Below, piece after piece: positions 1-11,963 of a DNA stretch of 11,963 nt (position 1 is the first letter of the stretch; each line of letters opens with the position of its first letter). The stretch is from a virus: UHGV virus genome UHGV-0046228. One strand, given 5' to 3'. Below the pieces are notes generated by a model, which worked only from the letters and a program-made list of their open reading frames with translations, did no database searches and was not told where the DNA came from. The translations under genes and the position numbers were made by a program.

Positions 1-385
1 CCGGAACAGCACCGGGGTTCGGCGTCTTCAGCGTGGTCGAGCTGGCAAAAGCACCGGAGCCAACGTTATAGGTGAAGGAGTAAAGCGCGGCGCGGGTTGG
101 CTCAGGGATGCGAACCTTGATCAGCGGGTCGATGGCGCTTGCCACCTTTCGCAGATCTGCCTTAAGCAGGTTGTCACACTCTTTGTCGGTATATCGGTGA
201 CCGCGGCGAATGTCGGTACCAGTGTGCCCATCGCAAACGGTCCAGACGCCGACCACATCCTGATAGGCGTAATAACGCCGACCTTCGAGTCCATCCGCAT
301 TGCCCAGCATTACTGCAGCAATGGTGATGGCTCCGGACCCGCCAACGATGGCACCCACCAGCTTATTCCTCAACGTTGGGTTCAT
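1..385 (-). CDS. SAR endolysin (signal-anchor-release lysozyme, phage 21 R-like), N-terminal 128 codons; C-terminus lies beyond the window start
   Basis: Manual reverse-complement translation from ATG at 385..383: [128 protein letters not shown]. Gly/Ala-rich weakly hydrophobic N-terminal SAR-like segment followed by a lysozyme-like E...D/C...T core; start overlaps the upstream holin by 23 nt in another frame. Absent from the ORF track because no stop lies inside the window. Confidence 0.85.
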
Positions 386-587
386 CTCGGCTCCTGCTGC
401 GGCGGTTGTCTTCGCGGATTTTGAAATAGAGATTTGTCAGATACGTCATTACGGCAATGATGATACCCACCAGCACGCCGATAGCGTTCCACTGCTCGGG
501 GCTGTAGGCATTAAGCATGCCGTTTAGGATGCTCCCGGCTGAAGCGCCATAGGCAGCACCAGTGGTTAGTTTGTCCATGCGATACAT
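363..587 (-). CDS. Class II holin (pinholin, phage 21 S-like) with dual-start motif
   Basis: 74-aa [22 protein letters not shown]...[15 protein letters not shown]; begins Met-Tyr-Arg-Met (two starts separated by a basic residue), two hydrophobic segments, charged C-terminal tail; SD GAGGTGA upstream; immediately precedes the SAR endolysin. Confidence 0.85.
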
Positions 588-621
588 ACTCTCACCTCGC
601 TTTGTGCGAGTGCTGTTGCTA

Positions 622-650
622 GGAATAAAAAAGGCCGCCGAACGGCAGCC
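622..650 (-). terminator. Intrinsic terminator-like hairpin about 35 nt upstream of the holin start
   Basis: Minus-strand reading GGCTGCC-GTTC-GGCGGCC followed by TTTTTTATT; 7-bp GC-rich stem with one G-U pair. Confidence 0.5.
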
Positions 651-848
651 TTGTATTGATTGATAGTTTCCGGAGCTTCTTTCTCGCTAGGAAAGCAAAA
701 AATTAAACAATCCTTAAGAATAGCCAGTTGATGCAAAAAATAATTAGCTTTTCAAATAGTTTTTAGCTGTTACCATTTCCACTAAGTTATGGCTTTACCT
801 CTTTGTGGATAAAAGAAAGACAAGCGGGTATGAGATTGAGTCGTTATT

Positions 849-883
849 GCGGAGAGGGGTGATGTCGTTCTCCGCGTTTTTTT
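849..883 (+). terminator. Plus-strand intrinsic terminator-like hairpin within the Q-to-holin intergenic region
   Basis: GCGGAGA (849-855), 13-nt loop, TCTCCGC (869-875), then G plus seven T (877-883). On the minus strand no U-run follows, so it is orientation-specific for plus-strand transcription. Confidence 0.45.
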
Positions 884-910
884 GGCTCGAAGCGATTTAG
901 GCCACAAAGA

Positions 911-942
911 AATAAAAAAAGCCCAAGGCGTTAACCTCGGGC
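911..942 (-). terminator. tR'-like intrinsic terminator downstream of the late promoter
   Basis: Minus-strand reading GCCCGAGG-loop-CCTTGGGC (8-bp stem with one G-U pair) followed by TTTTTTTATTTCTTT; about 120 nt downstream of the Q stop. Confidence 0.6.
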
Positions 943-959
943 TTGAATTTTTTTGGCTT

Positions 960-1065
960 CGGAACGACTGAACGGATTCCCAGCGTTAGAGATGAATCTA
1001 TCCAGTTTTTCCGCGAAATGCAATACCTATTTCCTATATATTTTCAACATTAGGGAAAATTATTT
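960..1065 (-). promoter_or_regulatory. Inferred late promoter (pR'-like) and Q-utilisation region
   Basis: AT-rich non-coding stretch between the Q stop (1066-1068) and the tR'-like terminator; minus strand has TTGAAA (1047..1042) and adjacent TATATA (1040..1035), but no clean -35/17 bp/-10 pair was found. Placement rests on position. Confidence 0.35.
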
Positions 1066-1875
1066 TCATCTCGTTACTTTTGAGAGAATGGAATCAGCCA
1101 TAGACTCCTGTTTATGGCATTCGGCGACCAACTCCTCAAATAGCGGCTGAAGTTGCTCATATGCCGCCGTTTTCTTTATCTCCGCAACAGTATTAACGCC
1201 CTCAATTACCGTTGAGAACTTAAGCCTGGCGTAACCTCTACCACCGCAGCGGTCGCAGGCTTTCATTACTGGAACGCCCTGGCGATCGCTTTCTGCCTTG
1301 TCCAGCACCTTACCTTTGCCATGGCAGCGACACGAATTGCTGATAACGCCTTTTCCGTTACACGGCTTGCACTTAACTCGCACCACCTCACGCGCCTGTG
1401 TCCAGCTCTCCCAGTCGCTTGGGCGAACGGCACGCGACATTTTCGACCAGTAAGGCGGTTTCCCCCATGGGTATGAGACCTTGTTGGTAAACACTTGCGC
1501 CTCTGTAAATCCGCCACCATCACAGCAATCACATTTTCGAGTGCTGGCAGCACTTCTTGAATAATCCTGGTATGCAAAAGCGCAGAGAACCTTAAGCACG
1601 CCTGACCGAGCTGATTCATCGAGTTCAGACAGTGCTCTGAATTTACCTGATAACTTACGTGCCTGCTCATAGAGTCTCTCCAGTGCTATATCTGGGCTGC
1701 TAATGCCGATTTTCGAGAGGTAAAGATCGAAACCAAACCCGCACTTGTGGCCAGCAAGGCCAAGCGCCGCCATAACGTCAGTGCCGGTGAGACTGTCTGA
1801 TGCGGTTGCGCGAGGAGAGTCACTGAACATCGGTGATTTAGGCGCAAAGTATTTAGCGATTGATTCGAGGTTCAT
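1066..1875 (-). CDS. Late-gene antiterminator Q-like protein
   Basis: 269-aa ORF directly upstream of the late promoter/terminator and lysis genes and downstream of nin genes; C-terminal half carries paired Cys motifs (KCKPCNGKG...CRCHGKG, CDRCGGRG) typical of Zn-binding Q-family antiterminators. Family assignment is from recall. Confidence 0.7.
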   Translation of the reverse strand: MNLESIAKYFAPKSPMFSDSPRATASDSLTGTDVMAALGLAGHKCGFGFDLYLSKIGISSPDIALERLYEQARKLSGKFRALSELDESARSGVLKVLCAFAYQDYSRSAASTRKCDCCDGGGFTEAQVFTNKVSYPWGKPPYWSKMSRAVRPSDWESWTQAREVVRVKCKPCNGKGVISNSCRCHGKGKVLDKAESDRQGVPVMKACDRCGGRGYARLKFSTVIEGVNTVAEIKKTAAYEQLQPLFEELVAECHKQESMADSILSKVTR

Positions 1876-1991
1876 TATGCGGCTTCCTTCTGTGGCTGGT
1901 GGGTTTTGGTCTGGCTGTGCTTTACTATTGGCGGCATGCTGGCGCGCTTAACGCTTTCGGCCTGGTATCGGGTTATCTCGTCTCTGGTCAT
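1875..1991 (-). CDS. Small hypothetical protein (38 aa), translationally coupled between lar and Q
   Basis: Manual translation MTRDEITRYQAESVKRASMPPIVKHSQTKTHQPQKEAA; ATG at 1991..1989 preceded by GGAGG with a 6-nt spacer; ATGA overlap with the Lar stop and TAATG overlap with the Q start. Not in the ORF track (below size cutoff). Confidence 0.4.
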   Translation of the reverse strand: MTRDEITRYQAESVKRASMPPIVKHSQTKTHQPQKEAA

Positions 1992-2194
1992 GATGGCCTC
2001 CGATTCCAGGCGCGAATTGCATCGCGCTTTGTTGGATAGGTGTCAGTTATCGGCTTAATCAAGCATTGCTTTGTTGAACAACCGGCGTAGACACCATCAC
2101 CATCAGAAAAAAGTTCTGCGCCGCCGCCACAGAACGGACACTCAAGCAGAAAAGCCCAATGAGGTAGCTTGAGATCGAATATCATTGGTTTCAT
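1988..2194 (-). CDS. Lar-family restriction alleviation protein (anti-restriction)
   Basis: 68-aa ORF with CPFCGG...AGCSTKQC zinc-ribbon-like cysteine pairs and C-terminal AIRAWNRR, matching my recollection of Lar/RalR-family proteins of Rac-type prophages; ATGA overlap with the ninG stop. Confidence 0.55.
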   Translation of the reverse strand: MKPMIFDLKLPHWAFLLECPFCGGGAELFSDGDGVYAGCSTKQCLIKPITDTYPTKRDAIRAWNRRPS

Positions 2195-2832
2195 GCTGCC
2201 TCCCGCTGTTTCAGTGCTTTGAGCTTGTCGCGGTACTCATCCCGGATCCGGATGAAGTCTTCACGGCGGTAGTTGGTCATTTCGTGGGGGCCGTTGAGCC
2301 AGTCGACGTATCCCTGACCGTAACGAGCGACCAACCCAGCTTCGTATTGCTGCGCCACGGTCGCCTCTTTGGCGGTGTACTTGCCAGCTCCGGCATTACA
2401 GGATTTGCACTGCTTATGGGCGTTGCGTTCTTCAAAGCGCAGTTCAGGGTAAGCACCTACTGTCTTGAAATGGCCGCAATCCCACTGGCCACCATGCAGA
2501 TCAGGCGGATTGGTCTCGCCGCAGCTGATGCATGGCAAATCGGCGTCGCGCGCACGGATAAAGGCGTTGAAAGCTTTCTGAGCCTGAGCCTTGTAGTGTC
2601 CGTCTGGCCTGAGCTCGTCCAGCCGCTCCGTGCGGCGTTTGCGCCCGTCCTTCTCAGCCTCGTTTTGCTCCTTGATGCGCTTAGCCGCGTCTTTCACCTT
2701 CTCCTTCTTGCGTTCTTCCATTGCGAGGATTGCGCCGTGTTCCGGGCAGCACCAGCGGATCCGGATGTCGTGGAATTTCGGCACGAAGTATTCACCGCAT
2801 ACTTTGCACTTACGGCGGGATGGTTTACGCAT
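2191..2832 (-). CDS. ninG: NinG (Rap) recombination-associated protein
   Basis: Translation from the internal Met ([16 protein letters not shown]...) parallels lambda NinG as I recall it ([17 protein letters not shown], ERNxHKQC motifs). The track start at 2910 would overlap the upstream phosphatase by 85 nt, so ATG 2832..2830 is preferred. Confidence 0.85.
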
Positions 2833-3493
2833 GGGCACCACCTTGAACCTGTACCAGCGTGAGGCTTCCGCAGAACACGGCCCCCGTATCCATGTACATC
2901 TGGTTGGCATACTTCAGGGGCTGGCGCGCAGGGGTGTGGCCGAAGATAAACAGATCAGCACCAGCTATCGGCGAGACAATGCCGTCCTGAGCGTCGCTAA
3001 CCCGTTCACGATTCCAGATGACCATGTCTTTCGGGACCGGCTTGTCGAACGCATATTCGTTATGCGGGTAGTCAGCGTGGCAGATAACGATTTTACGTTC
3101 AGCGGTAACCAGCTCGATGACGAATGGCAGGCTGGCCGATTTATGAACCAGAGCCTTAGCCAGCACCTCTTTGTCATAGTCGAGATTGAAGAACCAACCG
3201 CCACCGTTTACCAGCCAGTGATTGACGTTCCCATACTCCGATAGCCCATCAATCATCATCTGCTCATGGTTTCCGCGCACCGCCCGGAACCACGGCATAG
3301 TAATAAGCTCCAGGCACTCGACGTTTTCCGCGCCGCGGTCAACAAGGTCACCAACCGATATCAGCAAATCATGCGCCGGGTCGAACGAAACTTTTTCGAG
3401 CTCATTCATCAGCAGCGTGTAGCACCCATGCAGATCGCCGACGACGAAGATATTGCGCCAGTCAGCGCCATTAATGCGTTGATACATGCTCAT
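2825..3493 (-). CDS. Serine/threonine protein phosphatase (lambda PPase / NinI-like metallophosphatase)
   Basis: Metallophosphatase motifs GDLHG, GDLVDRG, GNHE and strong co-linearity with lambda PPase ([35 protein letters not shown]). Start taken at ATG 3493..3491 (MSMYQRING...) with AGGAG 9 nt upstream; ATGA overlap with the ninE stop. Confidence 0.9.
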
Positions 3494-3660
3494 GCGGATT
3501 TTCTCCTCGCTGCGAGACGCAGCCATTTCTGATCCACCAGGCGGGCGGTGTAATCTTTCAGGGTCGGAATGTCGGACGGCTTAATCGCTGGCTTACGCTT
3601 GCGGCGCACCGGAACGCGGAAGATTTCGTTTGTGATGACGCGAGCGAGAGGGCTAGCCAT
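3490..3660 (-). CDS. ninE: NinE-like small basic protein (56 aa)
   Basis: Manual translation [56 protein letters not shown]; resembles my recollection of NinE of lambda/DLP12 (RKRKP...WLR...ARR); TAATG overlap with the ninB stop. Not in the ORF track. Confidence 0.6.
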
Positions 3661-4097
3661 TACGCAACCCTCCCGAAGTAATCACCTGAGTAGCGAACTT
3701 CACGGAGTTGCACGCCGTTTTGCACAGCAAATGCCTGGCTGTATTCGATGAGACTGGTCATGCGACGGATGCCCATCTTCGCAGTGCTTTCCCGGATGGC
3801 GCAGAACTCCCCTTCCAGACCCGGCACCACTTCACCAGGCTTACCGGTGGCAATGGCATGGCCTGAGACATACAGGACTTTCCATGAAGCGAGGTCGCGC
3901 GACTTGCCAGCCCATTGCAATTGCTTCGCTGTATCGCCACAGAGAGCGTGGAAGAGGTCGTTTTGGGCGAGAGTGCGGTCAGCCTCAGAAAACTTCACCA
4001 CGAGCGGCAGAGCGTCGTTAACGGGCAGCTTCCTGATGTAGTCGATGAGGTTATCGCGAACGCGTTCGTCGCGGAGGTAGAAAACAGGCTGTTTCAT
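3660..4097 (-). CDS. ninB: NinB (Orf) recombination mediator
   Basis: Translation from internal Met (MKQPVFYLRDE...) is 145 aa and co-linear with lambda NinB as recalled (QN..L...GD......W.G, SWK core); GGAGGTGG SD 6 nt upstream of ATG 4097..4095. Confidence 0.85.
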   Translation of the reverse strand: MKQPVFYLRDERVRDNLIDYIRKLPVNDALPLVVKFSEADRTLAQNDLFHALCGDTAKQLQWAGKSRDLASWKVLYVSGHAIATGKPGEVVPGLEGEFCAIRESTAKMGIRRMTSLIEYSQAFAVQNGVQLREVRYSGDYFGRVA

Positions 4098-4129
4098 ACG
4101 CCACCTCCGAGAGGTAACGCAGAATACAG

Positions 4130-4243
4130 AAAATCGCAGGTGCATTTCTGCATCTGTGACAAGGTGAGAAGTTCATATTGTGGTCGCATTTAAGTCCCCT
4201 TAAATGCGAAGAAGTCTGCCAGGGTTGTTCAGGCCGCTGGCAG
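4130..4243 (-). other. Structured RNA element: three consecutive hairpins ending in a U-rich tract (tR2-like terminator, leader or small RNA)
   Basis: Minus strand: TCTGCCAG-14 nt loop-CTGGCAGA; CGCATTTAAG-GGGA-CTTAAATGCG (10-bp perfect stem); CAGATGCA-GAAA-TGCACCTG (GNRA-type loop) followed by CGATTTTCTGTATTCTG. Confidence 0.35.
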
Positions 4244-4247
4244 ATTT

Positions 4248-4276
4248 ATTATGGCTCGTTGATAGTGTTTTATCAA
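4248..4276 (-). promoter_or_regulatory. Candidate sigma70 promoter upstream of the hairpin element and ninB
   Basis: Minus strand TTGATA (4276..4271), 17-nt spacer AAACACTATCAACGAGC, CATAAT (4253..4248). Confidence 0.45.
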
Positions 4277-4317
4277 ACGTTGCTTGACGTTTAGTTATGC
4301 GTCGAATGGGTTCTGCA

Positions 4318-5070
4318 TCACTTCACCTTCCACTGCGGTGCTGCTGCAATCATCGCGCGGTATGCAGCCTGCATGTCGTTGTCATCATCGTCTGTGTACG
4401 GAGCCGAATCCCATGCTGCACGCATATCCGGAGTAAGCTCAACCGGCACCATCACCCAACCATCAGGAATCACCGGAGAGTTGCCACCCTGAACAGTAGG
4501 CATATCCGGACCTTTGCGAATCGCCCTGGCAAGATCGATTTGGTCGTCGTACAACCAGTCACCTGTTTGCGGATGATTGGCTTCTGCCAATTGTGCAGCC
4601 CACTCCAGGCCGTCTTTGTGTCCTTGCAGATAGTCCAGCGGTAACTCATCACTATTACTTACAGGTTCGGCCTGAAGCATGGCGGCGCGATAGGCGTTCC
4701 AGCCGACAGCTTTTCCGTGTTCAAACGCGCTGTCAAAGTCATCATCAATTTCCATCGCAGCGGGCACAGATACCGGCGCTGGCGGGGCGGTGTAGAGCGG
4801 CATTACCTCAATATTGAAGATATCCCCCTCGCTTGGACACGCCTCTGCGCTACCGTAAACCCAAGGGTGAACGACTCCGTTACGCTTGTTGATTAATCTG
4901 TGCGCCCACGCCACAGGCTCCGCTTCGAGCGATGCCAGCGCGATACGCGCATTATTAATCAGGAGGCTATCAGCAGGAGATAAAACAACATGAGCGTTAC
5001 CCTCCGCATCAATTTCAGAATTCGTAATTTTTCTGAACAGCTTTGCCAGTTCTCTGGTAATAGTGCTCAT
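4318..5070 (-). CDS. Hypothetical phage protein (250 aa), acidic
   Basis: Long ORF with ATG at 5070..5068, GGAG 8 nt upstream, ATGA overlap with the upstream ORF stop; acidic runs (EIDDDFD, YTDDDDNDM); no family recognised. Confidence 0.7.
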   Translation of the reverse strand: MSTITRELAKLFRKITNSEIDAEGNAHVVLSPADSLLINNARIALASLEAEPVAWAHRLINKRNGVVHPWVYGSAEACPSEGDIFNIEVMPLYTAPPAPVSVPAAMEIDDDFDSAFEHGKAVGWNAYRAAMLQAEPVSNSDELPLDYLQGHKDGLEWAAQLAEANHPQTGDWLYDDQIDLARAIRKGPDMPTVQGGNSPVIPDGWVMVPVELTPDMRAAWDSAPYTDDDDNDMQAAYRAMIAAAPQWKVK

Positions 5071-5345
5071 GGGCGAATCTCCGTCCTGCCACCAAGTAAG
5101 CGGATTGCCACTCGTTCCCGGAAGGTAAGCGGTCGATGGTGTCCGCGGGCATTAACAATTTCAGGCTTTCCATTAGGCGGATAATTGACCCTGACCGATT
5201 GACCATCTAGCGCGTGAGAAGCCTCGAGTAGTGCTGACTTTAAGTGCGCAGGGCACTCTTTCTGCACCCGCTCGCCGTCTGAAATGACACCTGCAATCCC
5301 CTGAAGCATGCTGGCTAAATTGCTGAGATAATTTTTCACATTCAC
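5067..5345 (-). CDS. Hypothetical protein (about 90 aa); start uncertain
   Basis: ORF-track start at 5345 is a GTG only 1 nt after AAGGAG; GTG at 5339..5337 has better spacing (7 nt). Stop overlaps the start of the 250-aa ORF (ATGA). Confidence 0.5.
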   Translation of the reverse strand: MNVKNYLSNLASMLQGIAGVISDGERVQKECPAHLKSALLEASHALDGQSVRVNYPPNGKPEIVNARGHHRPLTFRERVAIRLLGGRTEIRP

Positions 5346-5692
5346 TCTCCTTTACCGGTGCCATAGGCAGATAAGCACTCTTCAAATCCAGCCTGATTAT
5401 CCGTTTGACCTAAACTGAAGCCATGCTGAAGACCATGACGAAATGCGCTATCTTGCAATTTATCTGCGCTATCGAGCTTCGCTTCCAGTTCAGCAATCCG
5501 CTCCTCATACCGAGCGCCAACGGAAACGGCTTTATGGAAGGCTTCGCACCATTTGGACGATTGCGCCTGCATCTTCTCCAGCTCATCCAGCAGCTCCAGC
5601 ACGTCGCGAGTGGGAACCATGAAGTTCGGAATGAAGTTATCTTTCGCTTTCTCTGCTGTTAGGCGCAGCGCCTGTTTGTCGATGTTGCTCAT
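5342..5692 (-). CDS. Hypothetical protein (116 aa) with central coiled-coil-like segment
   Basis: ATG 5692..5690 overlapping the stop of the upstream ORF (ATGA); charged heptad-like region ERIAELEAKLDSADKLQD; no family recognised. Confidence 0.6.
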   Translation of the reverse strand: MSNIDKQALRLTAEKAKDNFIPNFMVPTRDVLELLDELEKMQAQSSKWCEAFHKAVSVGARYEERIAELEAKLDSADKLQDSAFRHGLQHGFSLGQTDNQAGFEECLSAYGTGKGE

Positions 5693-5949
5693 TGGGCGGC
5701 TCCTTCTGTGCGATACATCATGATTGTCAGATCGCCTTTAGTCGCCAGGCGCACCGTTGTTCCTGGTTCGATGCTGGACAGGTCAAACGCATCGTAAAAT
5801 TCGTTTACTGCCTTCTGTCTACGAGATAGCTTTCTACGCTTATCCCACTGCTTTAGCGCAATGGAGATAAACCACTGGCCCGTTTTGAACATGATGAATA
5901 ACCACCCCATCAGAGCGAGACCAGTGTTTAGAATGTCCAGAATGCTCAT
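5689..5949 (-). CDS. Hypothetical small membrane protein (86 aa)
   Basis: ATG 5949..5947 with AAGGAG 7 nt upstream; N-terminal hydrophobic span LALMGWLFIMF followed by a basic stretch. Confidence 0.6.
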   Translation of the reverse strand: MSILDILNTGLALMGWLFIMFKTGQWFISIALKQWDKRRKLSRRQKAVNEFYDAFDLSSIEPGTTVRLATKGDLTIMMYRTEGAAQ

Positions 5950-6041
5950 GACTGCACTCCTTTGCGAAGCTGTGCGGCGATGTCTTCGAGTACTCCATCA
6001 GCGAAGGAGCGATCAAAATCCCCCTCTGGCGCATCAGCCAT
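5946..6041 (-). CDS. Small acidic hypothetical protein (31 aa), translationally coupled
   Basis: Manual translation MADAPEGDFDRSFADGVLEDIAAQLRKGVQS; stop TGA overlaps the ATG of the 86-aa ORF (TCATGA); no obvious SD, so it rests on coupling only. Confidence 0.3.
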   Translation of the reverse strand: MADAPEGDFDRSFADGVLEDIAAQLRKGVQS

Positions 6042-6044
6042 AAA

Positions 6045-6569
6045 CTATGTAGATGTGAGAATCATCCGTGCGATGTCTGCCGAGATCTTCGCAGTATCAT
6101 CAATAAAACCAGCTTCCCAGGCAGCCAGCATTCTGTTAGACACAAAGTAAGCGCCCTCCTTGCGTGCTTCAGTCTTCACTTCAGCCAAGAAAGCGTCGGT
6201 GGCTGTGGTTCGCGGCATCCTTCCATCTATTGCGCAGATATACGCATCAGATAGTTCACCCTGCTCGCCGTCAAACACGTAGCAACTCTGTACGATAAAT
6301 TTATTCAGCCCCGCATTCTCCGCCGCCAGCTCCCTGCACTTGCTCTCGGCGTTAGCGAGCTGTACTGCCATGTCTGTGACTTCGGCTTCAAGTTTTTCAG
6401 CATATTCAATCAGGAGATCGATTCTTTCCGGCGTTACGGTTTTAACGTATTTGCAAATCGATGACGCATAATTATCATCCTGGAGTGTGCCAGCCAGGCC
6501 ATTACAAAATTTGCGGTTCCCTTTTGTCGCCTTGATATCGGCGATGATTTTTTTAACATCTGGTTTCAT
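6045..6569 (-). CDS. Hypothetical phage protein (174 aa) with coiled-coil-like centre
   Basis: Preferred start ATG 6569..6567 (MKPDVKKIIADIK...) making an ATGA overlap with the ren stop; the track's longer N-terminus would overlap ren. Confidence 0.6.
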   Translation of the reverse strand: MKPDVKKIIADIKATKGNRKFCNGLAGTLQDDNYASSICKYVKTVTPERIDLLIEYAEKLEAEVTDMAVQLANAESKCRELAAENAGLNKFIVQSCYVFDGEQGELSDAYICAIDGRMPRTTATDAFLAEVKTEARKEGAYFVSNRMLAAWEAGFIDDTAKISADIARMILTST

Positions 6570-6865
6570 GCTGACACCCTCCCGTAAAACGCCAGTACAC
6601 GCTGCATCGCCGGACTGTTTCGGCACTCCTGAAATATTCCGTTGGTGCAGCTACGCGCGGTACCAGCCTGCTCTTCCGGCGTAGCCAGGCGATAAGTCAC
6701 CGTTCGCCAGACCTTGCTCACCCGGATAATTTTTCGAGACTTTTCCAGATCGATAGCGTTCTTCGTGATGCAGTTGATGGTCATGCCGCACTCTGTGGCC
6801 ACATCCTTCGCGGTGAAGGTCCGGTGCGTTTCGAGATAACGCAGAATTGCCTGCTTGCCTTTCAT
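6566..6865 (-). CDS. ren: Ren-like protein (lambda Ren, resistance to Rex exclusion)
   Basis: 99-aa translation MKGKQAILRYLETHRTFTAKDVA...KVWRTVTYRLATPEE...FQECRNSPAMQRVLAFYG is co-linear with lambda Ren as recalled; ATGA overlap with the P stop; sits directly after P as in lambda. Confidence 0.8.
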   Translation of the reverse strand: MKGKQAILRYLETHRTFTAKDVATECGMTINCITKNAIDLEKSRKIIRVSKVWRTVTYRLATPEEQAGTARSCTNGIFQECRNSPAMQRVLAFYGRVSA

Positions 6866-7656
6866 TGAATAAGCCCTCTCTCTTTCCCGCGCTGATACTC
6901 TTCCCAAAGCCATTGGGCCGGGGTGAGAGCGCCGAGAGTCGCCGCATTTGGCATGCACCCGAAGCTTTTTCCTTCCGGGTGATAACCGGCCTGACGGCTC
7001 ACGTGATTTGTCGGGATCACTTCATCAGAATTCTCGAGCGCCAGGACGGGGGATGGTATTTTTTCCCCACCAGCAACTTTCAGCGCCCATTCCTCAAGTT
7101 TTTTTGACGCGTATTTTTCAGTTTCAGCCTCGCTCAGCTGGCGCTGGTACATCGCTCTGCGCGTATCGGTCACAATCCAGTACATGACGTCATGAGACCA
7201 CGGGAAAGCTTCTGCTCCGCCGGTATGCAGCCCTTTTTCGCGGCTATACCGATGGAACTCATTCATCACATCAGCCAGGCCAATGCCAAGTACCGTGCCG
7301 CTATCCTTGCACCATTTGATGAATTGCCCCGGAGAAGGCCAGAAGGGTGATTCACTGGCGCGGGCATGCCGTACACCTGCGGAAAGTTGTTCGCGGGTGC
7401 GGATCCCATTCTCTGAAAACGCTGCGATCCACTGACGCTTTGCCGTTTTCTCGTCTGCGTCAGTTTTCAGGTTTGTCTGCGTAGACGCAGGGAAAATCTG
7501 CTTCAGCTGCCGAAAGAGAGAATCAACGAGGCTTTCCGCTTCGGGATTTATTACCTTCTGCTGGTCGGCGTTTCCGTTAGCCATTCTGGATAGCAGTGCC
7601 CCGTCACGCCCGTTAACTGCCTGCACAAGTTGGTTATTCACAGGAAGTCCTCCCAT
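6862..7656 (-). CDS. P: Replication protein P (DnaB helicase loader)
   Basis: 264 aa, co-linear with lambda P as recalled (FPAS, RRQWIAAFSENGIRTREQ, PFWPSPGQFIKWC, YWIVT); start overlaps the 3' end of the O-like gene. Confidence 0.9.
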   Translation of the reverse strand: MGGLPVNNQLVQAVNGRDGALLSRMANGNADQQKVINPEAESLVDSLFRQLKQIFPASTQTNLKTDADEKTAKRQWIAAFSENGIRTREQLSAGVRHARASESPFWPSPGQFIKWCKDSGTVLGIGLADVMNEFHRYSREKGLHTGGAEAFPWSHDVMYWIVTDTRRAMYQRQLSEAETEKYASKKLEEWALKVAGGEKIPSPVLALENSDEVIPTNHVSRQAGYHPEGKSFGCMPNAATLGALTPAQWLWEEYQRGKERGLIQ

Positions 7657-8372
7657 CCCTCGCGGCTGTTCCAGTGAGGCGTTTCCTGCTCAGCACGTCC
7701 ACGTTTAGCCAGCGGGTTAACCCTGGCATTCCGGATCCAGACTCTGAAAGCCGAATTCCAGTCGATTAGCTGCGTGCCACGGGAAAGGTGATAGTCCCGG
7801 AAGTTCAGCAGCTCAGTTTCAATGCTCACCCCCTTCTCGGCAGCCATAGCAATGTGATCTGCCGACGGCTTAAACAGGGGCGGGAATGGAATCTCCCCGT
7901 TTGGTGAAATCCCGATCCGCCGCTTAGCGGCTTCGCTCATAAAACCATCGCGCCCAGAGAGAGAGTTAGGTTCAGTGACTGGTTCAAAAGAGTGACTGGT
8001 TCTGGTGCCATCTGGTGGCACAGGGGGTGTGCAATCAGATGGCATAGGGTGTGCTTCTTCGTGGCATACCCCTGTGCAATTTAATGGCATAGGGGTGGCA
8101 TCTAATTTCAGGTAATACACATTTGACGTGTTACCTTTTCCGTTGTTGACGCCAACACGGTTCTCACGCCTGATAAGCCCCATTTCTTCAAGCGCATCAA
8201 TATGGTTACGAACAGCCGTTCTGCTGCATTCGCATTGGTCGGCGATATGTTGATACGAAGGCCAGCATTCGCCTTTATCGTTGGCGTTATCGGCCAACTT
8301 AATCAGGACGAGCTTACGCAGTGAGTTTCCCACTTTGACCCCCATTGCTTTCGCCATAAGTGACATGCTCAC
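7638..8372 (-). CDS. Replication initiator, O-like (N-terminal winged-HTH, ori iterons in the coding sequence, C-terminal P-interaction-like domain)
   Basis: 244-aa ORF; N-terminal HTH-like segment (SRTAVRNHIDALEEMGLIRRE); iteron repeats fall in a Pro/Thr-rich linker; followed by P. GTG at 8372 with GGAGGT 5 nt upstream, alternative ATG at 8366. Confidence 0.8.
   Translation of the reverse strand: MSMSLMAKAMGVKVGNSLRKLVLIKLADNANDKGECWPSYQHIADQCECSRTAVRNHIDALEEMGLIRRENRVGVNNGKGNTSNVYYLKLDATPMPLNCTGVCHEEAHPMPSDCTPPVPPDGTRTSHSFEPVTEPNSLSGRDGFMSEAAKRRIGISPNGEIPFPPLFKPSADHIAMAAEKGVSIETELLNFRDYHLSRGTQLIDWNSAFRVWIRNARVNPLAKRGRAEQETPHWNSREGWEDFL
8003..8100. repeat. Origin-of-replication iterons inside the O-like gene
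   Basis: Four related units spaced about 22 bp: TGGCACAGGGGGTGTGC, TGGCATAGGGTGTGC, TGGCATACCCCTGTGC, TGGCATAGGGGTGGCA, preceded by inverted repeat GTGCCA...TGGCAC and flanked by an AT-rich tract (8101-8130). Confidence 0.6.
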
Positions 8373-8389
8373 GTGCTACCTCCGGTTTG

Positions 8390-8418
8390 TTTACTCTCTT
8401 CGATTTACTTGGCATAAT
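8390..8418 (+). promoter_or_regulatory. Candidate promoter for an OOP-like antisense RNA
   Basis: Plus strand TTTACT (8390-8395), 17-nt spacer, CATAAT (8413-8418), in the intergenic region between the YdaT-like gene and the O-like gene, pointing opposite to them. Confidence 0.3.
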
Positions 8419-8423
8419 TGCCT

Positions 8424-8500
8424 CGCAATTGACTGACGTTTATTGCACCAGAAAGCTGTTGGTGTTCGAGCACCACAGCTTTCGCCATTTCTGTTGTTCT
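8424..8500 (+). ncRNA. Candidate OOP-like short antisense RNA (about 70 nt)
   Basis: Predicted start about 7 nt after CATAAT; ends at a 13-bp hairpin (GAAAGCTGTTGGTG / CACCACAGCTTTC, 8451-8483, one bulged T, 6-nt loop) followed by T-rich GCCATTTCTGTTGTTCTC, abutting the YdaT-like stop. Confidence 0.3.
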
Positions 8501-9042
8501 CACATAACCCCCAGCATCGATGTCACCATCGTCATCAGCGGCCCTACCTGCTCCGGCATGAGGCGAAACAATGACGCTATGCCCTCGCTTACCTCCTTCA
8601 TTTTCTGGTGCTCAGGCGCGTTCAGGAGAACGGCTTGCTTTGCTTCTGAACATTCCTTCATGGCAGATGCGATCAGCGACATGGTGTCGTTCTGCTGCGC
8701 CAGGCGTGTACGAAACTCAACAGGAAGAACAGACATGATTGCCGGGGTCAGTTCTCTAACGTTCTCGCGGTACTGATCGGAGTCGACGCGGTTATCCAGA
8801 AAGCGCAAAGGATTCTGGCGAGCCCTGCTGATGTCTTGCAGGAAGCTGACGGCGGTACCGCCCTGCTCCCGGTATTCGTTGATGATCAGCGCTGACACTA
8901 CGTCCTGATTGTCCAGGGACGACGACCATGCACGGACCGCATCGCGGATTTTGTCGTGACCTGGCTCCGCCTTAGGTTGAGCGCGGTTTATCATCGCTCC
9001 CGGGTGTATTCCGGTATTGTGTTGATACGCAAGTGAATGCAT
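8500..9042 (-). CDS. YdaT-like protein (Rac-type; occupies the CII position)
   Basis: 180-aa ORF downstream of the cro-like gene; segment IINEYREQGG...ELTPAIMSVLPVEFRTRL parallels E. coli YdaT as recalled; AAGGGA SD 5 nt upstream of ATG 9042..9040. Confidence 0.65.
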   Translation of the reverse strand: MHSLAYQHNTGIHPGAMINRAQPKAEPGHDKIRDAVRAWSSSLDNQDVVSALIINEYREQGGTAVSFLQDISRARQNPLRFLDNRVDSDQYRENVRELTPAIMSVLPVEFRTRLAQQNDTMSLIASAMKECSEAKQAVLLNAPEHQKMKEVSEGIASLFRLMPEQVGPLMTMVTSMLGVM

Positions 9043-9072
9043 TGCTTTCCCTTTCGTGGTTAGAGCCGCCGG

Positions 9073-9294
9073 TTAGGCGGCAAAGATACCTGGATATAGA
9101 ACTTCGCGAGGAAGTCCGGTTACTTCTTCGTATTTACGCATTTTTGTTACTGGAAGGCTGCCACCTCGCTTTTTAAGCATATTGATGGCCTGAGGCGTTA
9201 CGCCGACCTTTTCAGCAAGCACCTTTTGAGAGCCGCCCACTGCATTAATGGCTTTCTCAAGCGGGGTGCTGGCGTTGGATTTTTTGTTGATCAT
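9073..9294 (-). CDS. Cro-like DNA-binding protein (YdaS / Cro-CI HTH family)
   Basis: 73-aa ORF with HTH segment GGSQKVLAEKVGVTPQAINMLKKRG; divergent from the repressor gene; GGAGC SD 5 nt upstream. Confidence 0.8.
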   Translation of the reverse strand: MINKKSNASTPLEKAINAVGGSQKVLAEKVGVTPQAINMLKKRGGSLPVTKMRKYEEVTGLPREVLYPGIFAA

Positions 9295-9314
9295 GTTTTG
9301 CTCCGCTCATGTGT

Positions 9315-9386
9315 AATCAACACCATGTTAATTCATGGCGTGGATTAAATCAACATTATGGTGATGGAAAAAATCCACATGTTGTT
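9315..9386. promoter_or_regulatory. Divergent operator/promoter region (OR-like) between cro-like and cI genes
   Basis: Three related sites: AATCAACAccaTGTTAATT (9315-9333), AATCAACAttaTGGTGAT (9348-9365), AATCCACAtgTTGTTT (9372-9387). Candidate pR on the minus strand: TTGATT (9353..9348), 17 nt, TAACAT (9330..9325), overlapping sites 2 and 1. Confidence 0.5.
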
Positions 9387-9411
9387 TACCATGCATGGAG
9401 CGGAGGGTTTT

Positions 9412-10131
9412 ATGAGCAGCATTTCTGAAAGAATTAAATTTTTACTGGCAAGGGAAGGCTTGAAGCAGCGGGATTTGGCTGAGGCTTTGTCGACTAGCCC
9501 ACAGACCGTCAACAACTGGATAAAAAGAGACGCGTTAAGTCGTGAGGCGGCGCAACAAATATCTGAAAAATTCGGTTATTCTCTTGACTGGTTATTAAAT
9601 GGAGAGGGTTCTCCAAAGAAGGATCTGGAGAGCAACATCCCGCCAGAGTCTGAGTGGGGAACTGTCGACGCTTGGGACAAAAATACCCCCCTACCTGACG
9701 ATGAGGTGGAAGTACCGTTTCTGAAGGATATCGAGTTTGCGTGTGGTGATGGGCGTGTTCATAGCGAAGATCATAACGGCTTTAAACTGAGGTTCTCCAA
9801 GGCAACGCTTCGCCGGGTAGGAGCTAACACAGATGGGTCTGGCGTTCTGTGTTTCCCGGCAACCGGTGACAGCATGGAGCCAATGATTCCAGATGGAACC
9901 ACTGTGGCTGTGGATACAAATAACAAACGCGTTGTCGATGGAAAACTTTACGCTATTGGACAAGGCGATGGTGGTGAAGGGCAACTAAAAAGAATTAAGC
10001 AGCTCTACAGGAAACCAGGCGGAAAGCTAATTATCCGCAGCTACAACAATGAGGCCTACCCTGATGAAGAAGCTGACATTGATGATGTTGAGATAATCGG
10101 CCGCCTCTTCTGGTACTCGGTATTGCTGTAG
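9412..10131 (+). CDS. CI-type prophage repressor (N-terminal HTH, C-terminal S24 LexA-like autopeptidase)
   Basis: Start at ATG 9412 (MSSISERIKF...) with GGAGG 5 nt upstream; HTH LKQRDLAEALSTSPQTVNNWIKR; S24 catalytic motifs GDSMEP (Ser) and LKRIK (Lys). Confidence 0.9.
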   Translation: MSSISERIKFLLAREGLKQRDLAEALSTSPQTVNNWIKRDALSREAAQQISEKFGYSLDWLLNGEGSPKKDLESNIPPESEWGTVDAWDKNTPLPDDEVEVPFLKDIEFACGDGRVHSEDHNGFKLRFSKATLRRVGANTDGSGVLCFPATGDSMEPMIPDGTTVAVDTNNKRVVDGKLYAIGQGDGGEGQLKRIKQLYRKPGGKLIIRSYNNEAYPDEEADIDDVEIIGRLFWYSVLL

Positions 10132-10235
10132 CGGTGGCCTGAAGAGACGTTTGGTTAAGGCCAGCAACGGATCACAACAAACACATGGGGCGGCGGATTA
10201 AGGGTGATGGAGAATCGAAATAAGTTGAGGTCAAC

Positions 10236-10391
10236 ATGAACACGTTCAGCATAATCGCGATACCTTTTTTTGCCCTTTCAGTGGTTCTGTTGACTCTTGG
10301 CGCTACCAGGAAGAACCAAGCCAGCTTCATCGTTGGCGGCGTGTTTATGGCGTCATGCGTGGTTAATGCCATTATCGGCATGTCTCTTTGA
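10236..10391 (+). CDS. Small two-helix membrane peptide (51 aa), immediately downstream of cI
   Basis: Manual translation MNTFSIIAIPFFALSVVLLTLGATRKNQASFIVGGVFMASCVVNAIIGMSL; two hydrophobic spans separated by RKNQ; GAGG SD 5 nt upstream; no convincing terminator between cI and this ORF. Confidence 0.5.
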   Translation: MNTFSIIAIPFFALSVVLLTLGATRKNQASFIVGGVFMASCVVNAIIGMSL

Positions 10392-10583
10392 GCGCTATGA
10401 GATCAGGCATCCTCGTTACTTTGTCATGTGTGACAGCCTGGTATGCACTCTGCGAGCTTTGATGTGGTTTACCACTTTAATAGTCACCGTATCACTAAAC
10501 TGATTAGCTTTACTCATACTCTTGTGGATTCGCTATTTCTGATGTCAATGCAAAAAAATACTAAGGAAACAAAAAGGATACTT

Positions 10584-10850
10584 ATGTCAGATAACACTAT
10601 TAAAATCATACCTCAGCACATGACCGCCACATCAGTTCTTATTACGCCTGATCGTGCTGAAACAATCATTACTTTTCACCGCCATGAATTTGAGCATCAC
10701 ATGCAGTCTGATGAGCAAGGAAAGAATAGCTTCCAAGTAAAAGTTGAGTTGACCCCTAACATGTCAGTCTCAATGAGCCCGGATCAAGCTGTTGCATTAG
10801 TAAAATCATTACAGGTAGCTCTCAGGGATAATGGGCTATGGAAAGACTGA
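10584..10850 (+). CDS. Hypothetical protein (88 aa), first gene of the AT-rich module
   Basis: Preferred start ATG 10584 (MSDNTIKIIPQHM...) with AAGGA 5 nt upstream; the longer track ORF (from 10443) lacks an SD. His-rich segment FHRHEFEHHMQ; stop overlaps the next gene's start by 13 nt. Confidence 0.5.
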   Translation: MSDNTIKIIPQHMTATSVLITPDRAETIITFHRHEFEHHMQSDEQGKNSFQVKVELTPNMSVSMSPDQAVALVKSLQVALRDNGLWKD

Positions 10851-11488
10851 AGCCAGTTTCTTCAGTTCAACCTACCTCAGGAACAACATCATCAGTTCTT
10901 CCAAGTATTATAGTTAGTGCAACCCTAGCAGCGACAACCGTTTCTCCTTATGGGGATCCATCTCAGTACCAAAGTATTGGTATTGATGCTAAGGTATCAA
11001 ATAGAGTTTCATACGCCATGGACGAAACGGGTTTGCGCCCAAGTAAGGAAGATGTAGCGATGAAGAGTGATACCCTGGAGGTAAGCGTGAGCGGAATGTC
11101 CAGAGAAGAACTTGACGCAAAGCTTTCACAAAACAAATCAGAGGTAGAGTCTATTGCTGCGGAAATGCGTCGCGAATCAGCTGACTTTAAAACCTATTAT
11201 ACTCAGCAATTTTCTTCTATTGAGAGAGGTATTGCTGAAATTAAAGGTGAAATCGGCGGTTTGAAAACGGGACTTACAACGACTCAGTGGGCGATGGCCG
11301 TTGGCTTGACTTTAGTTACTGTGATTCTGTCTGGCGTGATGTTAGCCTCAAGTTGGATTATCTCCGGCAATGACAAGTCACCATCAGTAACCAGCCCGGC
11401 TCCAATTATAATACAGGTACCGACACAGCAACCATTAACGAGCGCTCCAACTAACCAATCGTCATCACAACAAGCTCCTAAGCAATAA
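10838..11488 (+). CDS. Coiled-coil protein with C-terminal transmembrane anchor and Ser/Thr/Pro/Gln-rich tail (216 aa)
   Basis: Charged heptad-like region (SREELDAKLSQNKSEVESIAAEMRRESADFKTYY...ERGIAEIKGEIGGLKTGL), a single ~23-residue hydrophobic span (WAMAVGLTLVTVILSGVMLASSWII) and a low-complexity tail; AT-rich codon usage unlike the flanking phage genes; intrinsic terminator directly after the stop. Confidence 0.6.
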   Translation: MERLKPVSSVQPTSGTTSSVLPSIIVSATLAATTVSPYGDPSQYQSIGIDAKVSNRVSYAMDETGLRPSKEDVAMKSDTLEVSVSGMSREELDAKLSQNKSEVESIAAEMRRESADFKTYYTQQFSSIERGIAEIKGEIGGLKTGLTTTQWAMAVGLTLVTVILSGVMLASSWIISGNDKSPSVTSPAPIIIQVPTQQPLTSAPTNQSSSQQAPKQ

Positions 11489-11490
11489 AT

Positions 11491-11517
11491 AAACCCGGCC
11501 ACCGCGCCGGGTTTTTA
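11491..11517 (+). terminator. Rho-independent terminator after the AT-rich module
   Basis: AAACCCGGC-CACCGC-GCCGGGTTTTT: 6-bp GC stem extendable by three A-U pairs, T5 run, 3 nt after the TAA stop. Confidence 0.7.
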
Positions 11518-11963
11518 CTGCCCTACTCTTCCCTCAGCATCAGCACATCCAGTGCCAGCTCTACTGCCAAACAACCATCACCAAAAACAAAACGTAAAAT
11601 AAATATACTTTAAGTTCATTGACTTACATTTAAATGAACTATTGCCAAATTAAAAATGTCCTTTTGGTTCTTTACATTGATGAACCATTAGTCAATTTTC
11701 ATCTCATCCAAACAACAACGTTGGCGCCGGTGATAGGTAACAACGCTCCGTTAGCCGCGATAAGGCAAAGGTGAAGAGATGATCCGCGAAGAAGCCAAGC
11801 CTGCATGGCGTAGTTTTTGGTTAAAGGTCGTTCCGTTTTTGGTTGCTGTCCTTTTTTTTAGCTTCGCTTGCTGGGGTGGAAAATGAGCAATCACGCCCTT
11901 CCTTCCCTGATTTACTGCCTGCTCGTTTGAGGCGTACTCTGGGACGTATGGGTTTTACAAATT

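Follow-up and report, generated by a model that had tools for sequence, protein, structure and literature searches.

Gene order and the immunity module

The window analyzed here, UHGV virus genome UHGV-0046228, is the whole of metagenome contig NODE_1366 (SPAdes-style) of ENA ERZ504794, which is 11,963 bp long, has a coverage of ~3.6x and ends at contig ends on both sides. Nearly all of its genes are on the minus strand, and our subject is its early region at 6566-10131, which comprises the first part of an early-right operon transcribed from pR together with the divergent repressor gene. Starting from pR, cro (9294-9073) is the first gene, followed by the gene in the cII position (9042-8500), a 127-nt spacer (8499-8373), the gene of a replication initiator (8372/8366-7638), the helicase loader gene P (7656-6862) and ren (6865-6566), all on the minus strand; cI (9412-10131) lies on the plus strand and diverges from cro. 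We can confirm the order that an initial annotation had read, in which a repressor diverges from Cro and the minus-strand operon goes on with a YdaT-family gene where cII is expected, then with genes for an initiator, a loader of the lambda P type and a homologue of Ren. The left edge that it gave, 6566, is correct only for ren, which starts with the ATG at 6865; the 130-aa open reading frame (ORF) reaching 6958 is an over-extension. On the strength of gene identities, operator identity, the co-variation of iterons with the initiator N-terminal domain, breakpoints and the same arrangement elsewhere, we consider 6566-10131 very likely to be the lysis/lysogeny switch and replication module of a phi80-like lambdoid temperate phage, made by ordinary module exchange.

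The product of cI is a 239-aa repressor of the imm80 type, with a helix-turn-helix (HTH) domain and an S24 autopeptidase (Pfam Peptidase_S24, Phage_CI_repr and HTH_3). Its identity is 89% to phi80 CI and 96% to the CI proteins of HK225 and of Escherichia coli ABWA45. Aligned with phi80 CI, it shows no difference in the N-terminal half, DNA-binding domain included; all differences fall in the C-terminal domain, whose sequence is nearer to that of HK225 (96% overall) than to that of phi80. In the OR/pRM/pR control region (9295..9411), all three OR operators annotated in phi80 (annotation from JX871397) were found with 0 mismatches, at 9315-9333, 9348-9366 and 9372-9390, and ~140 nt around OR are identical to phi80 in the alignment. 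The 73-aa product of cro (9073..9294, phi80 gene 30; Pfam HTH_3, 30.9 bits) shows 100% identity to phi80 gp30. After a 30-nt gap, the cII gene of phi80 type (8500..9042) encodes a 180-aa protein of the YdaT family (Pfam YdaT_toxin, PF06254, 89.1 bits, cut-off 21), which is 94% identical to phi80 CII and matches PHROG 163 "CII-like transcriptional activator" at 7.8e-54. At the nucleotide level, phi80 aligns with the window over 8498-9956 at 95% and over 8498-10154 at 91% (megablast/blastn).

The initial annotation had traced this side of the region to Rac, picturing Rac-type Cro/YdaT genes recombined with lambda's own O/P/Ren and with a newly rearranged nin block into which Lar had been inserted. 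Family labels do overlap in the way that this account would predict, since Cro comes near the YdaS threshold (29.8 bits against Pfam YdaS_toxin, just below the cut-off of 30), the CII-position protein belongs both to the YdaT Pfam family and to PHROG 163, which Rac YdaT matches too, P and Ren are of lambda families, and the nin order is unlike lambda's. However, similarity to the Rac proteins extends over partial lengths only and is low, at 34% over 56 aa for YdaS (E = 0.001) and 31.5% over 73 residues for YdaT (E = 6e-7), against 94-100% for phi80 gp30 and CII, and no window protein gave a BLASTP match to RacR, YdaU, YdaV or YdaW. The replication genes and the nin block, discussed below, fit this account no better, and we regard it as extremely unlikely. 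What stands is the family relationship of the CII-position protein to YdaT and, just under the cut-off, of Cro to YdaS; a Rac origin does not. On sequence grounds, the immunity module is phi80's (imm80), not Rac's.

Membership of the YdaT family fits a CII role: the phi80 gene has been named cII since its original record (X13065), and YdaT-family proteins are now regarded as functional CII equivalents in some lambdoid phages, not as toxins (PMC9986795, PMC5917428). The CP-933P-type YdaT site TTGATT-N6-AATCAA, allowing up to 3 mismatches, has 10 matches in the window versus 6.4 expected, none of them at the cro/cII border. Since that site belongs to one divergent member of the family (PMC9986795), we do not count its absence against YdaT-family membership. 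Searches of PDB sequences yielded no match for the CII/YdaT protein at E ≤ 0.01, and in NCBIfam nothing scored above cut-off for the initiator, P, ren, cII, cro or gp48/gp49-like proteins.

A replication cassette with an HTH_36 initiator

The replication initiator (7638..8372, minus strand) is a 242-244-aa protein of the HTH_36 family (Pfam, 52.7 bits). It consists of an N-terminal winged-HTH domain, a linker that encodes the iterons, and a C-terminal domain common to other cassettes, which gives a weak sub-threshold DnaT-like Pfam match. The initial annotation had called it a lambda-like O with iterons. Four iterons are indeed found in mid-gene, but the protein itself is of another family: it has no match to Phage_rep_O (PF04492) at E ≤ 0.01, whereas lambda O scores 123 bits and phi80 gp15 88 bits, and BLASTP aligns it with neither of these two. 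Among PHROGs it fits 1032 best (1.2e-60), whereas lambda O and gp15 fall in PHROG 277, and the only PHROG matches that are shared are to domain-hybrid families, such as phrog_391, in which the initiator aligns with profile positions 1-97 and lambda O with positions 133-288. The closest relatives are a protein of ABWA45 (100% identity) and the "O" of the Klebsiella phage RAH1 (84.5%). By tblastn, 234 phage records contain this type of initiator, those of Klebsiella, Salmonella, Stx and mEp phages among them, and they often label it "O" or "primosomal protein I". A PDB search returned nothing at E ≤ 0.01, the best match being to a FadR-type HTH (0.054). Judged by these comparisons, the initiator is not a member of the lambda O family, which removes a second element of the Rac/lambda account, in which lambda's own O would be expected.

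P (6862..7656, minus strand) encodes a lambda-P-type helicase loader of 264 aa, or 259 aa if translation starts from a GTG that overlaps the initiator stop codon (Pfam Phage_lambda_P, PF06992, 196.6 bits, cut-off 26; PHROG 109 "P-like helicase loader", 8e-78). It is 36% identical to lambda P over 207 aa, 35% identical to phi80 gp14 and 98% identical to the P protein of ABWA45. The ren gene (6566..6865, minus strand) is joined by ATGA overlaps both to P upstream and to the next gene downstream, and its 99-aa product aligns with lambda Ren over 95 aa at 48% identity (E = 1e-28) and matches PHROG 142 "Ren-like exclusion protein" (1.6e-34). Pfam has no model for Ren, not even lambda Ren having a match there, and RefSeq names the ABWA45 homologue "protein ren"; we read the product as a Ren homologue. 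The description of P and Ren as lambda-type thus proved right in the sense of homology, although at 36% and 48% identity these are not lambda's own genes, which again argues against recombination with lambda's O/P/Ren.

At least 21 public contigs encode an identical P protein. Its neighbours in the six contexts inspected are without exception an HTH_36 gene and a gene of ~99 aa, and these six have a CII of lambda type (PF05269) together with repressors, Cro genes and nin regions that vary. Nucleotide identity is 99% over 6605-8493 with locus L011 and 79% across 6860-8495 with Klebsiella phages, whose proteins are ~84% identical. Because identical P recurs with the same flanks but with differing cI/cro/cII and nin modules, initiator-P-ren can be regarded as a portable and widely circulating cassette.

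Within the initiator gene, at codons ~94-123 of 244 and thus between the N- and C-terminal domains, lie four 18-19-bp, partly palindromic repeats of the pattern TRTGCCA-N7-GCAC (8005..8091, minus, i.e. coding, strand). Exact pattern matches are at 8005-8022, 8029-8046, 8051-8068 and 8074-8091, with a start-to-start distance of 22-24 bp. With 1 mismatch allowed, the window has 6 matches versus 0.49 expected, a number reached by 0 of 200 shuffles. We weighed whether these repeats might be a by-product of a repetitive proline-rich linker (PMP..C motifs), the true origin lying elsewhere. They do encode a repetitive linker peptide (…TPMPLNCTGVCHEEAHPMPSDCTPPVPPDG…), and no clear AT-rich unwinding element lies downstream of them. 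On the other side, the repeats are conserved as DNA with dyad symmetry, the fourth being a near-perfect palindrome (TGTGCCA-N5-TGGCAC), and their phasing of 22-24 bp is not a multiple of 3, which puts successive copies in different reading frames. An origin inside the initiator gene is moreover the classical ori-in-O architecture, as annotated in the phi80 and lambda records. Together with the comparison of initiator types that follows, in which unrelated DNA repeats occupy the same place, this makes the by-product explanation very unlikely.

At 93-97% identity, loci L007-L010 and L012 match the window from a start that varies by locus (6304-6862) as far as 8004/8005, where the iteron array has its downstream edge; beyond this point they diverge. 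Protein alignment distinguishes three types of initiator N-terminal domain and linker, with types B and C being 28-61% identical to type A, that of the window. All three types are joined to a near-constant C-terminal domain (97-100% identity in most loci, 86% in L008 and 79% in the Klebsiella phage), and each has at the same position its own set of 3-4 phased, partly palindromic repeats: TATGCCA-N7-GCACA in type A, CCCAAATTTGG in type B and CTAGTGCA-N6-TCACTAG in type C. In loci L007-L012, the chimeric initiators lie at about 7290-8019. The initiator gene is thus best described as a domain chimera with its crossover at the iteron edge. Since the repeats change together with the N-terminal DNA-binding domain and the C-terminus does not, there is good comparative evidence for reading them as the cognate origin iterons, and the constancy of the C-terminal domain suggests that it pairs with P. 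Independent exchange of origin specificity (N-terminal domain plus iterons) and of loader specificity has long been established for the initiators of lambda, phi80, 82 and P22.

The spacer between cII and the initiator gene (8373..8499) marks a homology boundary, where phi80 similarity stops at 8498 and that of L011 and Klebsiella phage RAH1 at 8493-8495. Since L011/RAH1 homology runs up to 8493-8495, the spacer belongs to the replication cassette. On its plus strand, antisense to the operon, it carries a promoter-like site at 8390-8418 (TTTACT-17-CATAAT with a TG extension), whose two hexamers are invariant among homologues and between which the sequence varies. The plus-strand RNA has a fold energy of -27.9 kcal/mol (z = -3.7), and its hairpin at 8452-8482 shows two compensatory pair changes (T-A to C-G and G-C to A-T) among four homologues. 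A terminator scan did not call this hairpin, whose tail CGCCATTTCTGTTGTT is weakly T-rich, and Rfam, searched with the whole window at E ≤ 1, returned three sub-threshold chance matches, none in 6566-10131, and no oop-type family. By analogy with lambda oop and phi80 M3 RNA, which are similar in position and orientation, the spacer is a candidate for encoding an antisense RNA that would end at the cII stop codon. In L007-L010 and L012, the cII-initiator spacer (~6950-7340) contains extra genes, for an HNH endonuclease, an ANT-domain antirepressor-like protein or a ClpX-type zinc-finger protein, and looks like a hot spot for insertions.

Just past the iterons, where the shared sequence starts, are two direct repeats of GAACCAGTCACT (7974-8002) and, next to them, a CT-tract (7956-7965). 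It is possible, although we hold it doubtful, that both a preferred crossover just downstream of the iterons, at these repeats and the CT-tract (7956-8002), and a module-borne oop-like antisense RNA (~8425-8500, plus strand) exist here. Neither feature appears to have been annotated for the HTH_36 initiator family. If this were true, units of N-terminal domain and iteron specificity would be swappable onto one constant C-domain/P loader unit, and an antisense RNA ending at the stop codon of whichever cII is upstream would be a regulator acting across a recombination joint.

Joints between modules and the same arrangement elsewhere

The initial annotation had presented the combination as a mosaic, a reading that a single known phage with the same collinear arrangement would have countered. 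Mosaicism is confirmed by blastn alignments to several comparators, but the arrangement itself is uncommon rather than new. E. coli ABWA45 (NZ_CP022154) covers 6577-10131 in a single 3,555-nt alignment at 95.8%, and E. coli O19:H7 730V1 (NZ_CP061764) covers 6576-10154 at 95.8%. In both, the RefSeq order is S24 peptidase, HTH protein, YdaT-domain protein, HTH protein, replication protein P and protein ren. Both are annotated prophages, not studied phages, and they are the only 2 of 5,426 complete E. coli genomes that hold at least 80% of 6566-10131. None of the isolated phages in the collection covers at least 80% of this region. For the whole 12-kb window, a share of at least 80% was reached by none of the phages and by none of the complete E. 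coli genomes.

We defined breakpoints as the ends of blastn alignments (at least 100 nt and at least 85% identity) to 16 comparators, which gave 38 clusters. These are enriched at gene borders, with 14/38 clusters at most 10 nt from a gene start or stop, versus a background of 6.1% (binomial P = 2.5e-8), and 18/38 at most 20 nt away, versus 11.2% (P = 2.9e-8). The phi80/cassette joint (8493-8498) lies against the cII stop codon (8500-8502), the joint between cassette and accessory genes (6576-6577) is 7 nt from the ren stop/ATGA, and the joint at the end of cI is at 10131-10134. Many breakpoints are intragenic, e.g. at least 5 in orf250. The earlier suggestion that modules meet at ATGA overlaps or hairpins is therefore borne out in its general point, by the enrichment at gene boundaries, and ATGA overlaps do exist at P/ren and at ren and the next gene. 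However, ATGA is not diagnostic of a joint: it is the commonest type of operon junction (7/17), and TAATG, 8-nt-overlap and intergenic junctions have breakpoints as often. Breakpoints at gene borders are the classical lambdoid pattern.

With a coverage of only ~3.6x, an assembly artefact has to be considered for these joints, the contig having been stitched in the metagenome from co-occurring lambdoid prophages at shared sequence. Lambdoid phages share near-identical segments where assemblers can switch, and no single complete E. coli genome spans 5300-6750. This explanation nevertheless has to face the fact that independent genomes or phages span every joint in or bordering 6566-10131. ABWA45 and 730V1 span 6577-10131 in one piece; L009, L010 and L012 cross the joint between ren and the next gene (6304-8005), and L011 crosses 8005; HK225 crosses the end of cI (9020-11524); and among the nin joints, E. 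coli 21AR0133 spans 3609-5300 at 99.2% and L010 spans 1877-4669. Only ~5600-6340, outside the region, is left without a single spanning sequence, and we find it highly unlikely that the joints are artefacts. The region is an ordinary mosaic of a lambdoid phage, probably one of E. coli, made of modules known from other phages and prophages.

The region most likely works as follows. By homology or analogy, imm80-type CI would bind the three OR operators, shutting off pR and autoregulating pRM, and upon induction pR would transcribe cro (phi80 gp30) and then the gene of the YdaT-family CII, which would promote lysogeny. The N-terminal domain of the HTH_36 initiator would bind the four iterons inside its own gene, and its C-terminal domain would recruit the lambda-P-type loader, which in turn would bring host DnaB. 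Such a scheme would follow the same logic as lambda O/P with a non-orthologous initiator, and Ren would come next in the operon. As to origin, the phi80 immunity module (8498-10131) was most likely joined to the initiator-P-ren cassette (~6577-8497) exactly at the cII stop codon.

Several observations limit this reading. Exact, 4-mismatch and weight-matrix scans for phi80 OL operators found none in the contig, including 11489-11963. The same weight-matrix scan recovers three OL operators in each of phi80, HK225, ABWA45 and 730V1; the contig ends 475 nt after gp48, and the OL operators probably sit beyond its end. There is no marked AT-rich stretch following the iterons, and the only AT-rich patch near them (8100-8139, GC 0.30) is on the opposite side. 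The C-terminal domain of the initiator has no detectable similarity to the P-binding C-terminus of lambda O, and the PHROG matches of the two do not overlap, so the contact of the initiator with P may differ from that in lambda. Coverage of the contig is only ~3.6x.

On the far side of cI, the position of rexAB is occupied by an HK97 gp49/gp48 cassette (10134..11516, plus strand) that is 99.6% identical to HK97, with the two genes at 10584-11488 and a strong intrinsic terminator at 11494-11516. HK225 pairs the same gp49/gp48 cassette with an imm80-like cI. The last stretch of the contig (11489-11963) resembles neither phi80 nor HK225 closely, and two AT-rich inverted repeats lie in it, at 11614-11639 and 11675-11703.

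Downstream of ren, the operon continues on the minus strand through five small accessory genes (6569-4318) into ninB (4097-3660), ninE (3660-3490), a phosphatase gene (3493-2825), ninG/rap (2832-2191), lar (2194-1988), a 38-codon ORF (1991-1875), Q (1875-1066), a holin gene (587-363) and the start of a lysozyme gene that runs past the contig end. NinB, NinE, NinG, Lar, the metallophosphatase and the Q antiterminator were all confirmed by Pfam. From ninE through to the lysozyme start, including the pR' region, positions 1..3642 form one 3,642-nt alignment with phi80 at 98.05%, in which Q, Lar and holin are 100% identical and the phosphatase (ppp) and rap products 97%. The order ninB-ninE-phosphatase-ninG-Lar-Q does differ from lambda's ninB-C-D-E-F-G-H-I-Q, as had been noted, but it was neither rearranged nor given a Lar insertion, since from ninE to Q it is the native phi80 order at 98% nucleotide identity, and the last part of the Rac/lambda account falls with it. 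A phosphatase before ninG is also found in ABWA45, in Klebsiella phage RAH1 and in locus L010.

In this block, ninB (3660..4097, minus strand) encodes a protein of the true NinB family (Pfam NinB, 132.9 bits; 32% identity to lambda NinB) that has no BLASTP match to phi80 gp53. Homology to phi80 is lost at 3642 and picks up again at 4094, only three bases away from the start codon of ninB, and E. coli 21AR0133 is continuous across this interval. We infer one local swap in the nin block, in which a true NinB took the place of phi80's gp53, a YbcN-family protein. The exchanged stretch extends from the ninB start codon (4094-4097) into ninE, where it ends after 18 nt (3642), so that the N-terminus of NinE was exchanged too; NinE is 89% identical to phi80 NinE. 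The 38-codon ORF between lar and Q (1875-1991), with an ATGA overlap with lar and a TAATG overlap with Q, is called in the source contig and annotated in 730V1, and is unannotated in phi80 JX871397. Among the accessory genes, orf250 (4318-5070) is a phi80 gp52 homologue (74%), with related E. coli genes annotated as DUF551-domain, and its at least 5 intragenic breakpoint clusters versus different comparators make it a patchwork within one gene. The ead/Ea22-like and DUF4752 stretch (5300-6750) is present only piecewise in complete E. coli genomes, none of which holds at least 80% of it, and some of its pieces match ~90-kb phage-like plasmids.

Comparison with known systems

Mosaicism of this kind is a textbook phenomenon and carries little weight as a discovery. 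The arrangement of 6566-10131 is uncommon but already known, and the use of the result lies in a corrected annotation: a phage with phi80 immunity, whose replication genes have been exchanged for a common HTH_36-initiator/P/ren cassette. Two points of naming follow. The Pfam names "YdaT_toxin" and "YdaS_toxin" imply neither Rac ancestry nor toxin function, the proteins here being a predicted phage CII and Cro, and an iteron-bearing gene in the "O" position need not be a homologue of lambda O. The three-way comparison of initiators offers a clean example in which N-domain plus iterons and C-domain plus P appear to be exchanged independently.

Among known systems, Rac (racR-ydaS-ydaT-ydaU-ydaV in E. 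coli K-12) resembles the window in having an HTH Cro-like protein and a YdaT (PHROG 163) protein in the Cro and CII positions. It differs in sequence (31-34% identity), in its repressor, which in the window is of the S24 autopeptidase type and not RacR-like, and in its replication genes, those of the window being unrelated to YdaU (DUF1376) and YdaV. The ABWA45 and 730V1 prophages have the same order of cI, cro, ydaT/cII, HTH_36 initiator, P and ren. They differ in the accessory genes between ren and the nin block and in the genes after cI, and ABWA45 lacks Lar and has a YbcN-type gene where the window has NinB.

The Klebsiella lambdoid phages vB_Kpn_RAH1, ST13-OXA48phi12.5, RothC/D and klb_E share the initiator-P cassette, its upstream hairpin spacer and the four iterons, but they have a lambda-type CII, other repressor and Cro genes, and other genes after P. 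Lambda (NC_001416) likewise has an initiator gene with four phased iterons in the middle, a shared architecture that is not evidence of homology, followed by P (36%) and ren (48%) via overlapping stop/start codons. Its O, however, is a Phage_rep_O protein of PHROG 277, whereas the window initiator is of the HTH_36 family and PHROG 1032 with no BLASTP similarity to it; the iteron sequences are unrelated, and those of the window are not followed by an AT-rich tract.

The closest relative in immunity is phi80 (Lula, JX871397 / NC_021190), with identical OR operators, a cI product at 89%, gp30/Cro at 100% and CII at 94%, and with ninE, phosphatase, rap, Lar, Q, holin and lysozyme start in the same order at 98% nucleotide identity. 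Between these two blocks, and after cI, the window departs from phi80: gene 15, a Phage_rep_O gene with its own iterons, gives way to the HTH_36 initiator, gene 14 is replaced by a P of 35% identity, to which a ren gene is added, the M3 RNA region is replaced, gp53 of the YbcN type stands where the window has a true NinB, and gene 40A after cI is replaced by HK97 gp49/gp48.

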